Source: a virus
Length of the DNA: 64,000 nt
UHGV virus genome: UHGV-0171999
Strand: one strand, 5' to 3'
Part shown: piece by piece, positions 824-52,498 of the stretch
Layout of the letters: each line of letters starts with the position of its first letter
How positions within the stretch are numbered: the first letter of the stretch is position 1
Program-made: the position numbers and the translations under genes
Notes under the pieces: generated by a model
Seen by the model: only the letters and a program-made list of their open reading frames with translations
Databases searched by the model: none
Told to the model about the DNA's origin: nothing

Positions 824-831
824 TATTTATA
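824..831 (-). promoter_or_regulatory. T4 late promoter TATAAATA on minus strand, upstream of gene 53
   Basis: + strand TATTTATA is the reverse complement of TATAAATA; divergent arrangement with gene 4. Confidence 0.6.
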
Positions 832-29459: not shown

Positions 29460-29933
29460 ATGTTATTGACTGGCAAATTATACAAAGAAGAAAAACAAAA
29501 ATTTTATGATGCACAAAACGGTAAATGCTTAATTTGCCAACGGGAACTAAATCCTGATGTTCAAGCTAATCACCTTGACCATGACCATGAATTAAATGGA
29601 CCGAAAGCTGGAAAGGTGCGTGGATTGCTTTGTAATCTGTGTAATGCTGCGGAAGGTCAAATGAAGCATAAATTTAATCGTTCTGGCTTAAAGGGACAAG
29701 GTGTTGATTATCTTGAATGGCTAGAAAATTTACTTGCTTATTTAAAATCCGATTACACCCAAAATAATATTCACCCTAACTTTGTTGGAGATAAATCAAA
29801 GGAATTTTCTCGTTTAGGAAAAGAGGAAATGATGGCTGAGATGCTTCAAAGAGGATTTGAATATAATGAATCTGACACTAAAACACAATTAATAGCTTCA
29901 TTTAAGAAGCAGCTTAGAAAGAGTTTAAAATGA
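29460..29933 (+). CDS. 49: endonuclease VII (Holliday junction resolvase)
   Basis: MLLTGKLYKEEKQKFYDAQNGKCLICQRELNPD... matches remembered T4 gp49; 157 aa. Confidence 0.9.
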   Translation: MLLTGKLYKEEKQKFYDAQNGKCLICQRELNPDVQANHLDHDHELNGPKAGKVRGLLCNLCNAAEGQMKHKFNRSGLKGQGVDYLEWLENLLAYLKSDYTQNNIHPNFVGDKSKEFSRLGKEEMMAEMLQRGFEYNESDTKTQLIASFKKQLRKSLK

Positions 29934-31747
29934 CAATTGAAAAAGAAATTGAAGGATTGATTCATAAAACTAATAAAGACCTTTTAAACGAGAATGCTAA
30001 TAAAGATTCTCGTGTTTTTCCAACTCAACGGGACCTTATGGCTGGTATTGTGTCTAAACACATTGCCAAAAATATGGTCCCGTCTTTTATTATGAAAGCG
30101 CATGAAAGCGGAATTATCCATTTCCATGATATTGATTATTCCCCTGCTCTTCCATTTACTAATTGCTGTTTAGTAGATTTAAAAGGAATGCTTGAGAACG
30201 GGTTTAAGCTCGGTAATGCACAGATTGAAACTCCTAAATCAATCGGCGTTGCTACTGCAATTATGGCACAAATTACTGCACAGGTTGCTTCCCATCAATA
30301 CGGTGGAACGACTTTTGCGAATGTAGATAAAGTACTTTCTCCTTATGTTAAACGCACCTATGCAAAACATATTGAGGATGCAGAAAAATGGCAAATCGCT
30401 GATGCGTTGAATTATGCCCAATCTAAAACAGAAAAAGACGTATACGATGCATTCCAAGCTTATGAATATGAAGTAAATACTCTCTTTAGTTCAAACGGAC
30501 AGACTCCTTTTGTAACAATTACATTTGGTACGGGAACTGACTGGACTGAACGAATGATTCAGAAAGCAATTCTGAAAAATCGCATTAAAGGTCTCGGTCG
30601 TGATGGGATAACTCCTATTTTTCCTAAGCTCGTTATGTTCGTTGAAGAAGGTGTTAATCTTTATAAAGACGATCCGAACTATGATATTAAGCAGCTTGCT
30701 CTAGAGTGTGCAAGCAAAAGAATGTATCCTGATATTATTTCAGCTAAGAACAATAAAGCTATCACCGGCTCATCTATTCCTGTTTCTCCAATGGGTTGTC
30801 GTAGTTTCTTGAGCGTATGGAAAGATTCGACTGGTAATGAAATTCTTGATGGACGTAATAATCTTGGTGTTGTAACACTGAATCTTCCTCGTATTGCGTT
30901 AGATTCTTATATTGGAACACAATTCAATGAACAGAAATTTGTTGAGCTATTTAATGAACGAATGGATCTGTGTTTTGAAGCATTGATGTGCAGAATTAGT
31001 TCCTTAAAAGGAGTTAAAGCGACTGTTGCTCCTATTCTTTACCAAGAAGGTGCATTCGGGGTTCGTCTTAAACCTGATGACGACATAATTGAGTTATTTA
31101 AAAACGGTAGAAGTTCAGTGTCCCTAGGATACATTGGTATTCACGAATTGAATATTCTTGTCGGTCGTGATATTGGACAGGAAATTTTAACTAAAATGAA
31201 TGCTCGTCTTAAGCAGTGGACTGAAAGAACCGGTTTTGCTTTTAGCTTGTATTCTACTCCTGCTGAAAACCTTTGTTATCGCTTCTGTAAACTTGATACT
31301 GAAAAATATGGAAGCGTAAAAGATGTTACTGATAAAGGTTGGTACACTAATAGTTTCCATGTTTCAGTAGAAGAAAATATTACTCCGTTTGAAAAGATTT
31401 CTCGCGAAGCCCCATATCATTTCATTGCAACAGGTGGTCACATTTCTTATGTTGAACTTCCTGATATGAAAAATAACTTAAAAGGTCTTGAGGCTGTATG
31501 GGATTATGCTGCACAACATTTAGATTATTTTGGCGTTAACATGCCAGTAGATAAATGTTTTACATGCGGAAGCACCCATGAAATGACTCCAACCGAGAAC
31601 GGATTTGTTTGTTCTATTTGTGGAGAAACTGATCCTAAAAAGATGAATACCATAAGAAGAACATGCGGATATCTTGGAACTCCTAGCGTTGTTCCATGGA
31701 ATTTAGGTAAAATGAAAGAAATGGTAAAACGAGTAAAACATGCATAG
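29930..31747 (+). CDS. nrdD: anaerobic ribonucleoside-triphosphate reductase NrdD, uninterrupted
   Basis: 605-aa continuous ORF; C-terminal glycyl-radical motif RRTCGYLG and Cys cluster. Confidence 0.9.
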   Translation: MTIEKEIEGLIHKTNKDLLNENANKDSRVFPTQRDLMAGIVSKHIAKNMVPSFIMKAHESGIIHFHDIDYSPALPFTNCCLVDLKGMLENGFKLGNAQIETPKSIGVATAIMAQITAQVASHQYGGTTFANVDKVLSPYVKRTYAKHIEDAEKWQIADALNYAQSKTEKDVYDAFQAYEYEVNTLFSSNGQTPFVTITFGTGTDWTERMIQKAILKNRIKGLGRDGITPIFPKLVMFVEEGVNLYKDDPNYDIKQLALECASKRMYPDIISAKNNKAITGSSIPVSPMGCRSFLSVWKDSTGNEILDGRNNLGVVTLNLPRIALDSYIGTQFNEQKFVELFNERMDLCFEALMCRISSLKGVKATVAPILYQEGAFGVRLKPDDDIIELFKNGRSSVSLGYIGIHELNILVGRDIGQEILTKMNARLKQWTERTGFAFSLYSTPAENLCYRFCKLDTEKYGSVKDVTDKGWYTNSFHVSVEENITPFEKISREAPYHFIATGGHISYVELPDMKNNLKGLEAVWDYAAQHLDYFGVNMPVDKCFTCGSTHEMTPTENGFVCSICGETDPKKMNTIRRTCGYLGTPSVVPWNLGKMKEMVKRVKHA

Positions 31748-32570
31748 GTATTATATAATTTATAAAATAACAAATATAATTAATTCAAAGGAATATATCG
31801 GTGCGCATAGCACCGATAACATAAATGATGGTTATATGGGGTCAGGAACATTGATTCGTGCCGCTTTATTAAAATATGGTAGAAAAAATTTTAATAAAGA
31901 AATTTTACATGTTTTTGATAATGAAAAACAAATGTATGATAAAGAAGCTGAACTTGTAACCGAAGAGTATTGTCTAAAAGAAAATACATATAATATTAAA
32001 CCCGGTGGAAAAGGTGGAACTGCGTATGAACAGACACTTGAACATCGCCGCAAAAATAGTTTAGCAAATAAAGGTAAAAAGAGAACAGAAGAAACTAAAA
32101 TAGCTATTTCACGTGCTTTAAAGAAATATAAACGTACGCCAGAGCATCAAGCAAATTTAAATAAAGCCGTAAGCATAGCTATGAAGCGAAAAGATGTTAG
32201 AAGTAAATTAGCTGGAGAGCGGTCTGAGAAAGATAAATTATCTATATCAAACGGTGTTAAAAAATATTACAATTCTTTGAGTGAAGAAGAACGCGAACTT
32301 CATCGCAAGCGAATTATTGAAGGTAAAAAGAATTCTCCCATGTCATTGGAATCTAGACAAAAGCTTTCAAAAGCTTTAAAAGGACTTCAAGTTGGTTCAA
32401 AAAATCCAATGTATGGAAAAATTTCTCCAACTAGCAAAACCGTTTCAGTTGACGGTATTAAATATGATTCAATTAAAAAGTGCTCAAATGCAATAAAAGT
32501 TTCTAGACATCTTATACTAAAACGCTGTAATTCTACTGATGAAGCTTGGAAAAATTGGATATTATTATGA
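31740..32570 (+). mobile_element. free-standing GIY-YIG homing endonuclease gene (Seg-like)
   Basis: 276-aa ORF with GIY-YIG motifs (YIIYKITN...KEYIG...GSG) and basic repeat C-terminal DNA-binding region; overlaps nrdD stop and nrdG start. Confidence 0.75.
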
Positions 32571-38465: not shown

Positions 38466-39481
38466 AAATTTTAAATTTAGGTGATTGGCATTTAGGCGTT
38501 AAAGCCGATGATGAGTGGATTCGCGGTATTCAAATTGATGGAATTAAACAAGCAATAGAATATTCTAAGAAAAATGGAATTACTACCTGGATTCAATACG
38601 GTGATATTTTTGATGTGCGAAAAGCGATCACACATAAAACTATGGAGTTTGCCCGTGAAATAGTTCAAATGCTTGATGATGCTGGAATTACATTACACAC
38701 TATTGTAGGAAATCACGATCTCCACTATAAAAATGTAATGCATCCAAATGCCTCTACCGAGCTTTTGGCTAAATATCCTAATGTTAAAGTATATGATAAG
38801 CCTACTACAGTAGATTTTGACGGATGTTTGATTGATTTAATTCCTTGGATGTGTGAAGAAAATACTGGTGAAATTCTTGAACACATCAAAACTTCATCTG
38901 CTTCTTTTTGTGTTGGTCACTGGGAACTGAATGGATTTTATTTTTATAAAGGAATGAAATCTCACGGTCTTGAACCTGATTTCCTTAAGACTTATAAAGA
39001 GGTATGGTCTGGTCACTTCCATACTATCTCTGAGGCTGCTAACGTCAGATATATTGGGACACCATGGACACTAACTGCAGGTGACGAGAATGACCCTCGT
39101 GGGTTCTGGATGTTTGATACAGAAACAGAACGAATGGAATTTATTCCAAACAACACTACCTGGCATCGTCGAATTCAATATCCATTTAAGGGAAAAATTG
39201 ACTATAAAGATTTTACAAATCTATCAGTACGTGTTATAGTAACTGAGGTAGACAAAAATCTGACGAAGTTCGAATCTGAACTAGAAAAAGTTGTGCATTC
39301 ATTACGAGTTGTGTCAAAGATTGATAACTCTGTCGAGTCAGATGATAGTGAAGAAGTTGAAGTTCAATCTCTTCAGACGTTGATGGAAGAATACATTAAT
39401 GCAATTCCAGACATCACTGATTCTGACCGCGAAGCACTTATTCAATATGCAAATCAGTTATATGTAGAGGCAACACAATGA
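38462..39481 (+). CDS. 47: recombination endonuclease subunit gp47 (Mre11-like)
   Basis: Phosphoesterase motifs (LGDWHLG, GNHD, GHWE); 339 aa. Confidence 0.9.
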   Translation: MKILNLGDWHLGVKADDEWIRGIQIDGIKQAIEYSKKNGITTWIQYGDIFDVRKAITHKTMEFAREIVQMLDDAGITLHTIVGNHDLHYKNVMHPNASTELLAKYPNVKVYDKPTTVDFDGCLIDLIPWMCEENTGEILEHIKTSSASFCVGHWELNGFYFYKGMKSHGLEPDFLKTYKEVWSGHFHTISEAANVRYIGTPWTLTAGDENDPRGFWMFDTETERMEFIPNNTTWHRRIQYPFKGKIDYKDFTNLSVRVIVTEVDKNLTKFESELEKVVHSLRVVSKIDNSVESDDSEEVEVQSLQTLMEEYINAIPDITDSDREALIQYANQLYVEATQ

Positions 39482-39741
39482 CTTTTGATGAATTTAAAAA
39501 TGTTATGATGAGTCAGCATTTTGAATGCGAAGTAAAAGATGATATTGGGCATAAAGAAATTATTGAATATTGGTTTGAACCACTAGAGGTTGAAGATAAT
39601 TGTATTAAAAAGGTCACGGTCTGCACTGACTGGGCTGTATCTTTTAACTTCAACATTTTAGATAATGACACACCTAAATCATTACAAGATATGGCTGTAT
39701 CTTGTATTAAGGATGCATACTGTGAAGTTTTCGACATTTGA
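39478..39741 (+). CDS. hypothetical protein (46.1-like)
   Basis: 87-aa ORF coupled to gene 47. Confidence 0.5.
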   Translation: MTFDEFKNVMMSQHFECEVKDDIGHKEIIEYWFEPLEVEDNCIKKVTVCTDWAVSFNFNILDNDTPKSLQDMAVSCIKDAYCEVFDI

Positions 39742-39928
39742 CATTAATGATGAATTCATAGCAAACATTGATTATACCGAAGAAGATTCTAGATATGTTG
39801 GAATAATTTATATCACATCAAAAGCAGCGCAAGGTGTTGTTTGCATGGCTGAATTTGATGAATACTTTTTAGATTATGATGATATGATAGAATGGTCTAA
39901 AAGATACATTAAAAGGAATCTTTTGTGA
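39713..39928 (+). CDS. hypothetical protein (start uncertain)
   Basis: Track ORF 39665..39928; N-terminal part overlaps the preceding gene. Confidence 0.35.
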   Translation: MHTVKFSTFDINDEFIANIDYTEEDSRYVGIIYITSKAAQGVVCMAEFDEYFLDYDDMIEWSKRYIKRNLL

Positions 39929-41613
39929 AGAATTTTAAACTTAATAGAGTAAAATATAAAAATATAATGTCAGTTGGTCAAAATGGGATTGACATTCAAT
40001 TAGATAAGGTTCAAAAAACTCTTATTACTGGACGAAATGGCGGTGGTAAGTCTACTATGTTAGAAGCCATCACATTCGGGCTTTTTGGCAAGCCATTCCG
40101 TGATGTAAAGAAAGGTCAATTAATAAACAGCACAAATAAGAAAGAACTTTTAGTTGAACTGTGGATGGAATATGATGAGAAAAAGTACTATATCAAAAGA
40201 GGACAAAAACCAAATGTTTTCGAAATCACCGTTAACGGTACACGTCTTAATGAATCTGCCAGCAGTAAAGATTTCCAAGCAGAATTTGAACAGCTTATCG
40301 GAATGTCATATGCCAGTTTCAAACAGATCGTCGTACTCGGCACGGCTGGATATACCCCTTTTATGGGCCTATCCACTCCTGCAAGAAGAAAGCTTGTCGA
40401 AGACCTGCTCGAGGTAGGAACATTAGCTGAAATGGATAAGCTTAATAAAGCACTAATACGTGAATTAAATTCACAGAACCAAGTGCTTGATGTTAAAAAA
40501 GATAGTATTATCCAACAAATTAAAATATATAATGATAACGTTGAACGCCAGAAAAAATTAACTGGTGATAACCTTACTCGTCTACAGAATATGTATGATG
40601 ATTTGGCAAAAGAAGCCAGAACGTTAAAATCGGAAATAGAAGAAGCTAATGAAAGATTAGTTAATATTGTTTTGGATGAAGACCCGACTGATGCATTTAA
40701 TAAAATCGGTCAAGAAGCATTTTTAATTAAATCAAAAATTGACTCGTATAATAAAGTCATTAATATGTATCACGAAGGTGGATTATGTCCAACCTGTTTG
40801 TCACAATTAAGTTCCGGCGATAAAGTTGTTTCTAAAATTAAAGATAAAGTTTCTGAATGCACGCATTCGTTTGAACAGCTTTCAACACATCGTGATAATT
40901 TAAAAGTTCTTGTTGATGAATACCGAGATAATATTAAAACCCAGCAGACGTTGGCGAATGATATTCGCAATAAAAAGCAATCTCTAATCACGACGGTAGA
41001 TAAAGCTAAAAAAGTTAAAGCAGCTATAGAAAAGGCATCATCTGAGTTTATTGACCATGCTGATGAAATAGCACTGCTTCAAGAAGAACTTGATAAAATT
41101 GTTAAGACAAAAACTAATTTAGTAATGGAAAAATACCACAGAGGAATTTTGACTGACATGCTCAAAGATTCTGGTATTAAAGGTGCTATTATTAAAAAGT
41201 ACATTCCATTATTTAATAAGCAGATTAACCATTATCTTAAAATAATGGAAGCGGATTATGTGTTTACATTAGATGAAGAATTTAATGAGACAATTAAATC
41301 CCGTGGTCGTGAAGATTTTAGTTATGCTTCATTTAGTCAAGGTGAAAAAGCACGAATTGATATTGCTCTTTTATTTACTTGGCGTGATATTGCTGAAAAA
41401 GTTTCAGGTGTTAAAATAAGTTGTTTATTTCTTGATGAAGTGTATGACGGTGCATTTGATGCTGAAGGTATTAAAAATGTGGCTAAAATTTTAGATGGTT
41501 TGAAGAATACCAACTTCTTCATAATTTCGCATAAAGACCATGACCCACAGGAATATGGTCAGCACATTCAAATGGAAAAAGTTGGTAGATTTAGTTTAGC
41601 TAAGATTAGTTAG
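39925..41613 (+). CDS. 46: recombination endonuclease subunit gp46 (Rad50/SbcC-like ATPase)
   Basis: Walker A GRNGGGKST, coiled coil with CPTC hook, C-terminal FLDEVYDG; apparent GTG start; 562 aa. Confidence 0.9.
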   Translation: MKNFKLNRVKYKNIMSVGQNGIDIQLDKVQKTLITGRNGGGKSTMLEAITFGLFGKPFRDVKKGQLINSTNKKELLVELWMEYDEKKYYIKRGQKPNVFEITVNGTRLNESASSKDFQAEFEQLIGMSYASFKQIVVLGTAGYTPFMGLSTPARRKLVEDLLEVGTLAEMDKLNKALIRELNSQNQVLDVKKDSIIQQIKIYNDNVERQKKLTGDNLTRLQNMYDDLAKEARTLKSEIEEANERLVNIVLDEDPTDAFNKIGQEAFLIKSKIDSYNKVINMYHEGGLCPTCLSQLSSGDKVVSKIKDKVSECTHSFEQLSTHRDNLKVLVDEYRDNIKTQQTLANDIRNKKQSLITTVDKAKKVKAAIEKASSEFIDHADEIALLQEELDKIVKTKTNLVMEKYHRGILTDMLKDSGIKGAIIKKYIPLFNKQINHYLKIMEADYVFTLDEEFNETIKSRGREDFSYASFSQGEKARIDIALLFTWRDIAEKVSGVKISCLFLDEVYDGAFDAEGIKNVAKILDGLKNTNFFIISHKDHDPQEYGQHIQMEKVGRFSLAKIS

Positions 41614-42322
41614 GTTTATATTTACAATTATCATTATGCCATCTTGATAAATTTCCGAAAGTGGTAACTTTACCACAATGGACGCAAGTACCAGTCTTTT
41701 CAGTTTTCTTGCGTCCATTTGGATTTTTCTTGCAGAAATTTCTATGCGCTGCGATAACGCATTTCTTGCCTATCATTCCGCAGAATTCGCAGGATGTTTC
41801 TTCAAGAACGATTGCTTTAAGCCCGTTTGAGATATTATTTCTGTGTTCTTTAGACATTGGCGGTCTAACTTTAGGATTGGGGTGATTTGGGCAGTTATCA
41901 AAATGCCATCGATTCATATTCCCGCTTAATCCAGACTTACCGCAATGTGGACAAGTTAGTCTTGCTTTATTAGCTACTGCATCGGACATTTTCTTTCGTG
42001 TCTCTTGGGAGAACTCTTTATTCTTTTCTATTTCCCAGAGTTTACGACGAATCCAGCCGAAAGTTTTATTGTTGCGTTTAGCGTATTTCGTAGAAACTGT
42101 CATCATGTTAGCAGCATAGACTAATTTTGGTTCAGAAGGATAAATTTTTACTAAAAGTTGATGAGCTACATAGTGCTCTTCTGGTGTTAAATCTACTAAG
42201 TTTGAAGCATCATCGCTACCATTTAAACAGCGTGGTATAATGTGATGAGATTCAGTATAGCAATCAAGTTTTCGAGATTTAGCATTAGAGATTAACTTTT
42301 CGTAAATTAGTTTATAATTCAT
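41606..42322 (-). mobile_element. free-standing HNH homing endonuclease gene (mob-like), antisense to early genes
   Basis: HNH motif ESHHIIPRCLNGSDDASNLVDLTPEEH plus repeated CPHCG/CEFCG/CVHCG zinc-finger-like modules; convergent 8-nt overlap with gene 46. Confidence 0.75.
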
Positions 42323-42355
42323 AACATATCCTTTTGATACAGCGAGTGATAAACA

Positions 42356-42363
42356 TATTTATA
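42356..42363 (-). promoter_or_regulatory. T4 late promoter TATAAATA on minus strand, upstream of the HNH gene
   Basis: + strand TATTTATA about 34 nt upstream of the HNH start codon. Confidence 0.55.
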
Positions 42364-42373
42364 CGGAGGAACT

Positions 42374-42565
42374 GTGGCAGAATATTCAACTGGACAGCAT
42401 CTATTAACTATTCCTGAAATAAAACGATATATTCTGAGAAATAATTTTTCTAATGAAGAGCATATAGTTACTGAATCTATGCTTAAGAATGCATTTAAAG
42501 CAGAATATACGAAAATAATGTCCAACAGAAATGAAGCTTGGACTGTTACTGATTATTATGACTAA
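42374..42565 (+). CDS. hypothetical protein (45.2-like)
   Basis: 63-aa ORF, GTG start after GGAGGA. Confidence 0.55.
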   Translation: MAEYSTGQHLLTIPEIKRYILRNNFSNEEHIVTESMLKNAFKAEYTKIMSNRNEAWTVTDYYD

Positions 42566-42574
42566 AGGTGTATT

Positions 42575-42964
42575 ATGACTAAAATTACCGTGAATTATAC
42601 TGTTGATGTAAAAGATATTCAGCCAAAACACGTGCGTTCTGAATCAAATCCGCAAAACCAAAATAAAATTCGTCGAGCATGGGTTTTGTCTCTTTCTGAT
42701 AACGCAATGGAAGTTATTCAGAATAAAATTAAATCTGCACCTGCTCGTCATGCGTATTATGAAGCTATCGATCGTGAAGTGAGTGATAAATGGATTGAAC
42801 TGATGCGCAAACATACGGCAGAATCTCTAAACGCTGGTGCCAAATTTATTATGACTTCATGTGGTGAACGCCTTGAAGATGATTATTGCGGTAATGCAGA
42901 TGAACGTCTAATTGTTGCTGCTCAAATTGTTGCTGAAACAATTGCTGCTGATTTTAATCGTTAA
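42575..42964 (+). CDS. rpbA: RNA polymerase binding protein RpbA
   Basis: [23 protein letters not shown]...; 129 aa as T4 RpbA. Confidence 0.85.
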
Positions 42965-49659: not shown

Positions 49660-50400
49660 ATGATTAATGACTCTTTGACAGTTGAAGAAATCCGTCTTCA
49701 TTTGGGAATTGCGTTAAAGGAAAAAGATTTCGTAATTGATAAAACTGGCGTTAAAACTATTGAAATTATTGGTGCATCATTTGTAGCAGATGAACCTTTT
49801 ATTTTTGGCGCTCTTAATGATGAATACATTCAACGTGAACTTGAATGGTACAAGTCTCAAAGTCTGTTTGTTAAAGATATTCCAGGTGAAACACCAAAGA
49901 TTTGGCAACAGGTAGCATCTTCTAAAGGCGAAATTAACTCGAATTATGGTTGGGCCATCTGGTCAGAAGATAACTATGCCCAGTATGATATGTGTTTAGC
50001 TGAACTTGGTCAAAATCCTGATTCTCGACGTGGTATCATGATTTATACTCGTCCATCCATGCAGTTTGACTACAACAAAGATGGTATGTCAGATTTCATG
50101 TGTACTAATACAGTACAGTACCTGATTCGTGATAAGAAAGTCAATGCAGTAGTAAGCATGCGCTCAAATGACGTGGTCTTCGGATTCCGTAATGATTATG
50201 CATGGCAAAAATACGTATTAGATAAATTAGTATCTGATTTGAATGCAGGCGATTCAACTCGTCAGTATAAAGCAGGTTCTATTATATGGAATGTTGGAAG
50301 TCTTCATGTATATTCTCGTCATTTTTACTTGGTTGATCATTGGTGGAATACTGGCGAAACTCATATTGTGAAAAAAGACTATAAAGGTGAGTGGAAATGA
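49660..50400 (+). CDS. 42: dCMP hydroxymethylase gp42
   Basis: MINDSLTVEEIRLHLGIALKEKDFVIDKTGVKTIEIIGASFVADEPFIFG... matches remembered T4 gp42; 246 aa. Confidence 0.95.
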   Translation: MINDSLTVEEIRLHLGIALKEKDFVIDKTGVKTIEIIGASFVADEPFIFGALNDEYIQRELEWYKSQSLFVKDIPGETPKIWQQVASSKGEINSNYGWAIWSEDNYAQYDMCLAELGQNPDSRRGIMIYTRPSMQFDYNKDGMSDFMCTNTVQYLIRDKKVNAVVSMRSNDVVFGFRNDYAWQKYVLDKLVSDLNAGDSTRQYKAGSIIWNVGSLHVYSRHFYLVDHWWNTGETHIVKKDYKGEWK

Positions 50401-51239
50401 TTCAATTCGTAATTCCAAGTTATCAGCGTGTCGGGGCAGTTTCTGCCCTTGATATGTTTCCGACTGATTATGAACCCCATATTGTAGTGCGTGAACATGA
50501 AGAAAAAGCTTATTATGACGCTTACGGGTCTAGAGCTAAAATTGTAGTTATTCCCGATGATGTAAATGGAATTGCTGGAACTCGTAAAGCAATTACTGAT
50601 ATGTATGCAGGCCAACGAATTTGGATGATTGATGATGATACTACTATTCGTATGAGTTCAATGCGAAAGAAAGATGATCGTCGCTGCGTAGATAAAATTA
50701 ATCAATTAACTCGTGAACAGTTCTATGAATTGATTCAATACGTGGAAGATGCAATGGATTGCGGGTATTATCATGGTCATGCTCGTCTACCTATTTTTAA
50801 AATTACTTCATCTTGGGGTAATTATCGTGAAAATTCATATGGATTCACGAATACCTGGTATGACCTCGGAAAACTTACAACAGAACAAATTGGGTATGGA
50901 AAAATTGATTTATGCGAAGATATGTATGCATTTCTCAATTTAATTAATCAAGGTTATCCGCATTTGGCCTTGTTCAAATATCTGGTTGTATCTGGAAAAG
51001 CACAGGCTCCTGGCGGATGTAGTTCAATTCGTAGTAATTCAAAACATAATAGAGCGCTCGAGCAAATCAATAGAGAATTTCCAGAGCAAGCTCGTTGGAA
51101 AACATCGAATATTGAAAATAGAAAATCGTTGGGTGAAGAAGACGAGCCATTAAAAGTTCTTCGCATGTGTGTTTCACGTAAAGAAAAATCAGAAGCATTT
51201 CATAAGTTTAATGCTATTCATCCAATAGCAGTTGATTAA
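50397..51239 (+). CDS. putative DNA-modifying glycosyltransferase with DxD motif (GT-A-like), at the position of T4 beta-gt
   Basis: 280 aa; RIWMIDDDTTIR DxD motif; sits between 42 and uvsX and is unlike remembered T4 beta-gt. Confidence 0.55.
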   Translation: MIQFVIPSYQRVGAVSALDMFPTDYEPHIVVREHEEKAYYDAYGSRAKIVVIPDDVNGIAGTRKAITDMYAGQRIWMIDDDTTIRMSSMRKKDDRRCVDKINQLTREQFYELIQYVEDAMDCGYYHGHARLPIFKITSSWGNYRENSYGFTNTWYDLGKLTTEQIGYGKIDLCEDMYAFLNLINQGYPHLALFKYLVVSGKAQAPGGCSSIRSNSKHNRALEQINREFPEQARWKTSNIENRKSLGEEDEPLKVLRMCVSRKEKSEAFHKFNAIHPIAVD

Positions 51240-51316: not shown

Positions 51317-52498
51317 ATGTCTATTGCAGATTTAAAATCCCGTTTGATTAAAGCTTCCACTTCTAAAATGACTGCTGAACTGACTACATCTAAATTCTTT
51401 AATGAAAAGGATGTAATCCGTACAAAAATTCCAATGCTTAATATCGCTATTTCTGGTGCGATTGATGGCGGCATGCAGTCTGGTTTAACTATTTTCGCAG
51501 GGCCTTCTAAACACTTTAAATCAAATATGTCTTTGACTATGGTTGCGGCATATTTGAACAAATATCCTGACGCGGTTTGTCTATTCTATGATAGCGAATT
51601 TGGTATTACTCCAGCTTATTTGCGATCCATGGGAGTTGACCCGGAACGAGTAATTCATACGCCGATTCAGTCAGTTGAACAGCTGAAAATTGATATGGTG
51701 AATCAGCTTGAAGCTATTGAGCGCGGTGAAAAGGTTATTGTATTCATCGACTCAATCGGTAATATGGCTTCTAAGAAAGAAACGGAAGATGCCTTGAATG
51801 AAAAATCTGTGGCAGATATGACTCGTGCTAAATCACTGAAGTCATTATTCCGTATTGTTACTCCTTATTTTAGTATTAAAAACATTCCATGTGTTGCGGT
51901 TAACCATACAATTGAAACAATTGAAATGTTTAGTAAAACCGTGATGACAGGTGGTACAGGCGTAATGTATTCGGCTGATACTGTATTCATTATCGGTAAG
52001 CGCCAGATTAAAGATGGATCTGATCTTCAGGGGTATCAATTTGTTCTAAATGTAGAAAAATCTCGTACCGTCAAAGAAAAAAGTAAATTCTTTATTGATG
52101 TTAAATTTGACGGTGGTATCGATCCTTATTCTGGATTGTTAGATATGGCTCTTGAATTAGGATTTGTGGTAAAACCTAAAAATGGCTGGTATGCTCGTGA
52201 ATTTCTTGACGAAGAAACCGGCGAGATGATTCGCGAAGAAAAATCTTGGCGTGCAAAAGATACCAATTGCACTACATTCTGGGGTCCTTTATTTAAGCAT
52301 CAACCATTCCGAGATGCTATTAAACGTGCTTATCAGTTAGGTGCTATTGATAGTAATGAAATTGTTGAAGCTGAAGTTGATGAATTGATTAACTCAAAGG
52401 TTGAAAAATTTAAATCTCCAGAAAGTAAAAGTAAATCAGCAGCTGATTTAGAAACTGACCTAGATCAGTTAAGTGATATGGAAGAATTTAATGAATAA
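51317..52498 (+). CDS. uvsX: recombinase UvsX (RecA-like)
   Basis: 393 aa; sequence matches remembered T4 UvsX along its length. Confidence 0.95.
   Translation: MSIADLKSRLIKASTSKMTAELTTSKFFNEKDVIRTKIPMLNIAISGAIDGGMQSGLTIFAGPSKHFKSNMSLTMVAAYLNKYPDAVCLFYDSEFGITPAYLRSMGVDPERVIHTPIQSVEQLKIDMVNQLEAIERGEKVIVFIDSIGNMASKKETEDALNEKSVADMTRAKSLKSLFRIVTPYFSIKNIPCVAVNHTIETIEMFSKTVMTGGTGVMYSADTVFIIGKRQIKDGSDLQGYQFVLNVEKSRTVKEKSKFFIDVKFDGGIDPYSGLLDMALELGFVVKPKNGWYAREFLDEETGEMIREEKSWRAKDTNCTTFWGPLFKHQPFRDAIKRAYQLGAIDSNEIVEAEVDELINSKVEKFKSPESKSKSAADLETDLDQLSDMEEFNE

Follow-up and report, generated by a model that had tools for sequence, protein, structure and literature searches.

The DNA analysed was a window of 64,000 nt from the UHGV virus genome UHGV-0171999 (this whole stretch is called the window, and all coordinates and strands refer to it), and the subject is a gene inserted between genes 46 and 45.2 that is predicted to encode a free-standing HNH homing endonuclease. 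The window belongs to a Tequatrovirus, its plus strand corresponds to the minus strand of T4, and its gene order is 47, 46, the insert, 45.2, rpbA, 45, 44, 62, regA, and 43. The open reading frame (ORF) of the insert lies on the minus strand at 41606-42322, is initiated with ATG, and encodes a Mob-like protein of 238 amino acids, in which ESHHIIPRCLNGSDDASNLVDLTPEEH is present; residue numbers below refer to this product. A preliminary description made from the sequence had reported a 238-residue HNH endonuclease here, encoded by the only sizeable minus-strand gene in the replication block and overlapping the 3′ end of gene 46 convergently. All of this was borne out. Gene 46 (39925-41613, plus strand) terminates 8 nt within the 3′ end of the endonuclease ORF, so that the two genes are convergent and overlapping, and the other minus-strand ORFs of at least 110 amino acids in the block were all found inside longer plus-strand ORFs.

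The product of the ORF matched PHROG 655, "homing endonuclease", with an E value of 9e-69, and 2299 homologs were found at E ≤ 1e-5 in a large protein database, the full-length 238-residue relatives being 55–65% identical. These matches indicate that the ORF is not a chance ORF. Judged by its sequence, the gene falls into a well-known group, that of the free-standing HNH homing endonucleases in T-even phages, as an already annotated but uncharacterised member. RB32ORF054w, RB51ORF057 and about 60 GenBank entries named "homing endonuclease" represent the same gene at the same site, with 97–99% nucleotide identity. Their annotations are similarity-based: many records label the gene as a homing endonuclease, and that of RB51 reads [quoted passage not shown].

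T4 has no endonuclease gene at this position, as the preliminary description had supposed; the spacer between genes 46 and 45.2 is 55 nt in T4 versus approximately 760 nt in the window. Homology to T4 stops within the last codons of gene 46 on the left and restarts at the ribosome-binding site of gene 45.2 on the right. The left neighbour, gene 46, encodes an SbcC/Rad50-like recombination nuclease subunit and is the probable target gene. The right neighbour, gene 45.2 (42374-42565, plus strand), starts with GTG-GCA versus ATG in T4.

Domain architecture and selection

The N-terminal part of the endonuclease (about residues 1–100; 42023-42322, minus strand) was assigned as an HNH catalytic domain of the beta-beta-alpha-metal type from its invariant residues, its homology to Mob proteins and a structural model. 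In a 41-sequence alignment, E24, H26, H27, P30, G35, N41, H50, and H54 were invariant, and the residues expected of the HNH superfamily, namely a His base, an Asn and a metal-binding His on a hairpin plus helix, are all present. The first 110 residues or so were 44% identical to T4 MobB (E 7e-30), 37% to MobC (E 1e-22), and 36% to MobE (E 2e-23). The similarity to the three Mob proteins includes the MNY..IY start and the HH...N...H motif, and the present gene, like theirs, is free-standing in an early-region spacer between conserved genes and is patchy among relatives. It differs from them in that the C-terminal DNA-binding region is unrelated, with no alignment past about residue 125, and in that the site here is 46/45.2, with an orientation antisense to the neighbours and a late-promoter motif of its own. 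To our knowledge, only MobE among MobB, MobC, and MobE has been shown to be active.

The three zinc-finger-like modules mentioned in the preliminary description were located by a regular expression search as C-X2-C-X11/12-H-X3-C motifs, all on the minus strand, with spacers of X12, X11, and X12 in order. Finger 1, CPHCGKSGLSGNMNRWHFDNC, comprises residues 124–144 (41891-41953) and is of the CCHC type, as is finger 2, CEFCGMIGKKCVIAAHRNFC, with residues 178–197 (41732-41791). Finger 3, CVHCGKVTTFGNLSRWHNDNC, comprises residues 213–233 (41624-41686) and is the family-invariant C-terminal finger, its ligands C213, C216, H229, and C233 being invariant in the 41-sequence alignment. Finger 1 was 50% identical to the second finger of I-TevIII. 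Fingers 2 and 3 together aligned to I-TevIII residues 207–268 (RB6 copy, full length 269 amino acids) with 37% identity (E 4e-8), finger 2 matching residues 207–236 and finger 3 residues 238–263. The finger region also matched PHROG 12324 and 27406.

I-TevIII of phage RB3 thus resembles the predicted enzyme in having an N-terminal HNH domain with catalytic His-His at 26–27 followed by C-terminal CCHC fingers. The residues H26, H27, N39, and H48, which were mutated in I-TevIII to test catalysis (PMC1865063), match in position the invariant HNH residues of the endonuclease. In I-TevIII, the CX2CX12-13HX3C fingers are zinc-binding and required for contact with DNA, the interface for dimerisation was mapped to the same C-terminal DNA-binding region, and the dimer makes a double-strand break with 2-nt 3′ overhangs (PMC1865063). 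Unlike the present gene, that of I-TevIII is located in the nrdB group I intron, and nrdB is also the target of the enzyme; the HNH domain of I-TevIII is of a different subfamily, as no N-terminal alignment was obtained by BLAST, and I-TevIII has two fingers versus three here.

A confident AlphaFold2 model built from the 41-sequence alignment had a mean predicted local distance difference test score (pLDDT) of 92.6 and a predicted template modelling score (pTM) of 0.56, the latter being expected for a beads-on-a-string protein. In the model, the HNH head consists of strands 24–27 and 42–45 followed by helix 47–60; finger 1 consists of strands 121–123 and 130–132 plus helix 133–140, and all three fingers adopt a beta-beta-alpha fold. 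Two NUMOD3-like helices, 106–117 and 158–170, are also present in the model. By sequence comparison and modelling, the endonuclease is thus a predicted modular hybrid of a Mob-type head, an I-TevIII-type finger array and NUMOD3-like helices.

Selection on the ORF was computed from ten carrier genomes, among which the ORF DNA differs by up to 2–3%. Variable codons numbered 36, of which 33 were synonymous-only and 3 were amino-acid-changing. Pooled synonymous polymorphism (pS) was 0.087 and pooled nonsynonymous polymorphism (pN) 0.0018, giving a ratio of 0.021. The few amino acid differences were either conservative (E64K, V68I, and V172I) or located in the last residues, which overlap gene 46. 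The protein is maintained by strong purifying selection, which counts against a decaying remnant.

Predicted promoters and leader of the endonuclease gene

A T4-type late promoter motif, TATAAATA, is present on the strand of the endonuclease gene at 42356-42363, where the preliminary description had placed one. Its distance to the ATG is 33 nt, and the 5′ leader in between (42323-42355, minus strand) contains a Shine-Dalgarno sequence, AGGA (42329-42332), 6 nt 5′ of the ATG. The octamer abuts, on the opposite strand, the GGAGG ribosome-binding site of gene 45.2. Upstream of the orthologs in Dhakavirus Bp7, Klebsiella phage Roth04, Mosigvirus a20, and the T4-like IMG/VR genome L013, it was found to be identical in 8 of 8 positions, with coding sequences only about 65–70% identical. 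A leader block, TTTATC-NN-TCGCTGTATCA, was likewise conserved in five orthologs from several genera, and this conservation exceeds that of the coding sequence. On the minus strand of the window, where only two genes are credible, TATAAATA occurs only twice, once directly 5′ of each of them. The second copy (824-831, minus strand) belongs to a baseplate wedge subunit gene at 205-795 on the minus strand (PHROG 232, E 9e-74); this late gene marks where the late region borders, and it provides an internal control for calling the late promoter.

In T4, all homing endonuclease genes (HEGs) are oriented like their neighbours except segD, which is without a recognisable promoter, and the endonuclease-specific promoters are middle or late, never early (PMC2988022). 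Late expression of the present gene would therefore fit the known pattern, and an antisense HEG with its own conserved late promoter would be a mild departure from the T4 examples. A scan of 41300-42700 for sigma-70 promoters revealed none above chance. No intrinsic terminator was found 3′ of the endonuclease ORF on the minus strand within the same interval, and late minus-strand transcripts therefore probably run on antisense into gene 46.

Such run-on raises the question of whether the main product of the late promoter is an antisense RNA, which late in infection would chiefly silence or process gene 46 and upstream early and middle messages and would leave the ORF a secondary role. Antisense transcription from HEG promoters of opposite orientation has been raised as a possibility (PMC2988022), and the lack of a terminator found in 41300-42700 is in line with it. 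The protein-coding signal is overwhelming, however, the leader has no significant structure, and there is no specific evidence for an RNA function; we consider this explanation very improbable.

Regulatory elements were also sought in the leader. A hairpin presenting or sequestering the ribosome-binding site was predicted in the four orthologs tested but is not supported, its energies lying within 1–1.5 standard deviations of those of shuffled sequences. I-TevI binds a homing-site-like operator over its own late promoter. An autoregulatory operator of this style was rejected, the best local alignment of the leader and promoter to the T4 empty site scoring below the shuffle mean.

The 55-nt spacer of T4 holds a consensus MotA-type middle promoter, TGCTTTA-N11-TATAAT, that is missing from the window. 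This promoter is deleted in carriers, and its displacement is, like the antisense orientation, a mildly unusual feature of the insert. Matches to the MotA-box pattern TGCTTYA-N11-13-TANNNT in the window numbered 15, versus 2.0 expected. Plus-strand matches include those at 41075 (in gene 46) and 42966 (5′ of gene 45), both also present in T4, and a candidate, TGCTTTA-N13-TATTAT, at 41813-41838 on the plus strand, which lies inside the endonuclease ORF and antisense to it. Since the chance of a match on one strand of the 717-nt ORF is about 0.01, it is plausible that this box replaces the displaced spacer promoter of T4, but the case is weak and is given as a lead only. Embedded promoters are known for segA, segE, segG, mobB, and mobC (PMC2988022). 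The embedded box was not conserved in orthologs from other genera, and in Mosigvirus a20 the MotA promoter is kept in the spacer, back-to-back with the late promoter. The T4 spacer promoter could also be aligned by MAFFT to the reverse complement of the first 11 endonuclease codons (22/34), and this match is attributed to chance, because equally good matches occur 3+3 times in the window and the N-terminus is family-conserved at any locus.

An embedded promoter is one of several ties by which the gene could be held in place as an inactive passenger that does no cutting and is kept since its deletion would damage the neighbours. The C-terminus of gp46 overlaps the gene, the ribosome-binding site of gene 45.2 abuts its promoter, and with the T4 spacer promoter gone and the MotA-type consensus inside the ORF, the promoter of 45.2 and rpbA may be embedded, which is a known mechanism of retention for T4 HEGs (PMC2988022). 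A passenger would be expected to show amino acid changes and frameshifts; instead, the variable codons are nearly all synonymous (33/36), the catalytic residues and zinc ligands are intact, and the embedded promoter is not shared with the orthologs of other genera. This makes an inactive passenger highly unlikely.

Distribution among phages and the linked tract of gene 46

The IMG/VR database contains few Tequatroviruses (6 close rpbA loci), and its best copy of the endonuclease was 64% identical in amino acids; the locus comparison was therefore based on GenBank phage records. With a 2-kb query over the locus, the flanks were found in 662 phage records and the whole insert in 60. The insert alone was found at 95% identity or above in 59 records, with 6 at ≥99% and 53 at 95–99%. 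A query of 801 bp taken from T4 across its uninterrupted 46/45.2 junction was at least 80% covered in 591 of 607 records, and it was split into two pieces around the insert in the carriers listed. The endonuclease gene is thus present in about 9% of Tequatrovirus records and missing from about 90%, and the carriers span many named Tequatrovirus species, including RB51, ecomg28, slur07, and zeezeethirty.

Orthologs at the same site were found in Dhakavirus Bp7, Mosigvirus a20, Klebsiella phage Roth04, and genome L013. At these four loci, the gene lies between 46 and 45.2, always antisense and convergent with gene 46, and identity to the present copy was 64% in protein (L013) or 69–73% in nucleotides (Bp7, a20, and Roth04). 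A tblastn search with the finger domain (residues 118–238) yielded 174 records with at least 80% coverage. Among the records listed with full-length coverage of the finger domain, most have an annotated gene-46 homolog overlapping or adjacent to the match, and these include phages of Cronobacter, Yersinia, Enterobacter, and Klebsiella. Mosigvirus-like genomes without the HEG gave single-piece alignments across the junction.

Judged from these sequence comparisons, the pairing of gene and site is old, widespread and patchy, and this occupancy across several genera is characteristic of site-specific mobile elements and not of clade-specific genes. The preliminary description had proposed a lineage-specific mobile insertion, to be checked by comparing the interval across relatives. 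The mobile pattern held, with the gene in 59–60 of approximately 660 records and not in all; "lineage-specific" proved imprecise, as many species and several genera are involved.

The same data bear on whether the nuclease has been domesticated, that is, whether a protein of HEG origin is now kept for the benefit of the phage, by excluding the markers of relatives or acting on invading DNA, and no longer spreads selfishly. The persistence of the gene-site pairing in several genera and the very strong purifying selection (pN/pS 0.021) agree with such a role, and HEG-derived defence genes occur in other phages (PMC10448857). Presence in only about 9% of Tequatrovirus records is hard to square with a general benefit, however, and marker exclusion is the population-level face of homing (PMC2988022), so that this explanation is only partly distinct. 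We regard it as unlikely.

For comparison of the flanks, ten carriers and nine non-carriers were aligned over approximately 5 kb. Nineteen fixed differences between carriers and non-carriers were found, all at 41422-41594, within the last 190 nt or so of gene 46. None was found deeper in gene 46, and on the 45.2 side there was only 42379 (GTG-GCA for the ATG start codons); further fixed positions inside the insert are alignment artefacts against the short T4-type spacer. These differences fall in a divergent 3′ tract of gene 46 (41395-41613, plus strand), which encodes the C-terminal 70 or so amino acids of gp46 and is completely linked to the endonuclease gene. Identity between carriers and non-carriers was 76% in the tract and about 97.7% in every other flank segment; some pairs of carrier and non-carrier were 99.9–100% identical just outside the cassette. 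Apart from the tract, the flanks of the two groups were equally diverse. A database search with the tract only gave 6 records at ≥99% and 53 at 95–99%, the same counts as for the endonuclease gene, a comparison made on counts and not on accession lists. Within gp46, the tract corresponds to the Walker-B to H-loop end, where about a dozen residues are changed.

Among the non-carriers, two alleles were distinguished, the T4 type and the T2 type, which share only 76% identity in the tract. The last 200 nt or so of gene 46 therefore occur in three allele classes (carrier, T4, and T2) that are about 76% identical mutually, with flanks about 98% identical, and the 3′ end of gene 46 is a hot spot of recombination or allele replacement, also among genomes without the endonuclease gene. 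The donor of the carrier tract was not identified among the other genera tested, to which nucleotide identity was 64–72%. The tract peptide CLFLDEVYDGAFDAEGIKNV is common to the carrier Klebsiella phage Roth04 and is in neither T4 nor T2, with nucleotide identity of only 72%; this is a weak hint, suggestive only, that the tract may have been imported from a distant donor. In Dhakavirus Bp7, gene 46 is annotated as two coding sequences (755-1993 and 2073-2255 of its locus L109, 755-2255 in all), and its 3′ end has no clean translation up to the endonuclease gene, which reflects either a sequencing error or a disrupted gene 46.

The simplest reading of the linked tract is that it presumably separates the cleavage site from the insertion point, so that co-conversion always includes it, and/or that it serves as an immunity allele. 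Homing by free-standing endonucleases of the SegG and SegF type, known as marker exclusion, involves distant cleavage, and the spread of such an intergenic gene must co-convert the DNA between cleavage site and insertion (PMC2988022). The constant association of the endonuclease gene with about 200 nt of gene 46 fits this model. SegG and SegF, unlike the present enzyme, are GIY-YIG nucleases, and the cleavage site here is a presumed one. What was found of co-conversion is a population footprint, with no event observed.

Proposed homing cycle and its implications

From sequence comparison, we think it quite probable that the ORF encodes an active free-standing homing endonuclease, expressed late and directed at 46/45.2 alleles without the HEG. 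The gene would be transcribed late from its own TATAAATA promoter, opposite to the surrounding early and middle genes, and would yield a Mob-type HNH head tethered to a DNA-binding tail of two NUMOD3-like helices and three I-TevIII-type CCHC fingers. In a mixed infection, the HEG-less allele would be recognised and then nicked or cut; many monomeric HNH homing enzymes nick. The target would most likely be the 3′ 200 nt or so of gene 46 and/or the 55-nt spacer, the sole flanking DNA that differs between carriers and non-carriers. The break would be resected and repaired by the phage recombination machinery with the carrier genome as template, and repair would copy in the gene, its promoter and the adjacent gene-46 tract by co-conversion. 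The carrier allele would be immune, as the insertion and the linked substitutions would destroy the target.

Several points weigh against this reading. The match of the endonuclease to the Pfam HNH model (PF01844) was weak, with an E value of 0.007, under the gathering score, and that to NUMOD3 (PF07460) at residues 103–115 had an E value of 0.14 and 12.6 bits versus a cutoff of 20.4. PF07460 is carried by many homologs of the endonuclease, and in NCBIfam the sole match, to the HNH part of IscB, was below threshold as well; since all Pfam and NCBIfam matches were sub-threshold, the curated models cover this family poorly. Sequence and fold searches of the PDB gave no significant match to a solved structure, and no biochemical or genetic work on the protein was found in the literature searched. 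The TATAAATA motif occurred 10 times in the window versus 10.8 expected, which is chance frequency; the copy before the endonuclease gene is credible despite this lack of enrichment, given its minus-strand placement, its conservation in orthologs and the conserved leader block. Recombination among T-even phages is so free that it could produce patchiness and mosaic flanks without endonuclease-driven homing. As for the linked tract, it could have hitch-hiked along from the original donor and need not mark where cleavage occurs.

A bolder proposal is that a self-contained antisense cassette, made up of the late promoter and leader, the endonuclease and an obligatory replacement of about 200 nt at the gp46 C-terminus, tracks the 46/45.2 site across at least four T4-like genera. 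We put this forward tentatively and think it rather doubtful. If it were true, the Walker-B/H-loop end of the recombination nuclease gp46 would be rewritten at every invasion. The middle promoter of 45.2 and rpbA would be deleted as well, and expression of these two genes would come to depend on read-through or on a promoter within the endonuclease gene. The three gene-46 alleles of about 76% identity would in that case be scars left by repeated endonuclease-driven replacement or by a target-site arms race.

Other observations concern endonuclease genes elsewhere. An ORF of 276 amino acids at 31740-32570 on the plus strand matched PHROG 314, "homing endonuclease" (E 2e-60). It lies ahead of nrdG and shares 8 nt with the end of nrdD (29930-31747). 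This makes it the second free-standing endonuclease gene found in the window; it occupies the T4 mobC site and apparently belongs to a different family. In the interval between genes 47 and 46, ORFs resembling 46.2/46.1 are present in the window at 39478-39928. An annotated homing endonuclease gene replaces 46.1/46.2 there in T2 (L097, 1-512), G28 (L101, 1-750), and SYGD1 (L104, 1-510), so gene 46 can have endonuclease genes on both sides. At 50391-51239 on the plus strand, the window encodes a beta-glucosyl-HMC-alpha-glucosyltransferase (PHROG 842, E 2e-89), indicating DNA glucosylation of the T2/T6 type, and no segA-like gene is present between this gene and uvsX (51317-52498).

The current understanding of homing endonucleases is unchanged by these results. 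What is added here is the patchy occupancy of the site in multiple genera, the conserved antisense late promoter motif, the purifying selection, the linked tract and the Mob/I-TevIII architecture. For annotation, the gene should be named "Mob-like HNH homing endonuclease", the C-termini of gp46 depend on the allele class, and the start of 45.2 is GTG in carriers. The predicted protein is a clean case of domain shuffling that combines a Mob-type head with fingers of the I-TevIII type, and its gene would be a free-standing HEG with its own antisense late promoter rather than one using borrowed host transcripts. The linked tract of gene 46 predicts where the target may be sought. If the endonuclease is active, its target would be the sixteenth kind of homing site in the T-even repertoire, and the locus would be a natural marker-exclusion locus at the recombination genes 46/47.

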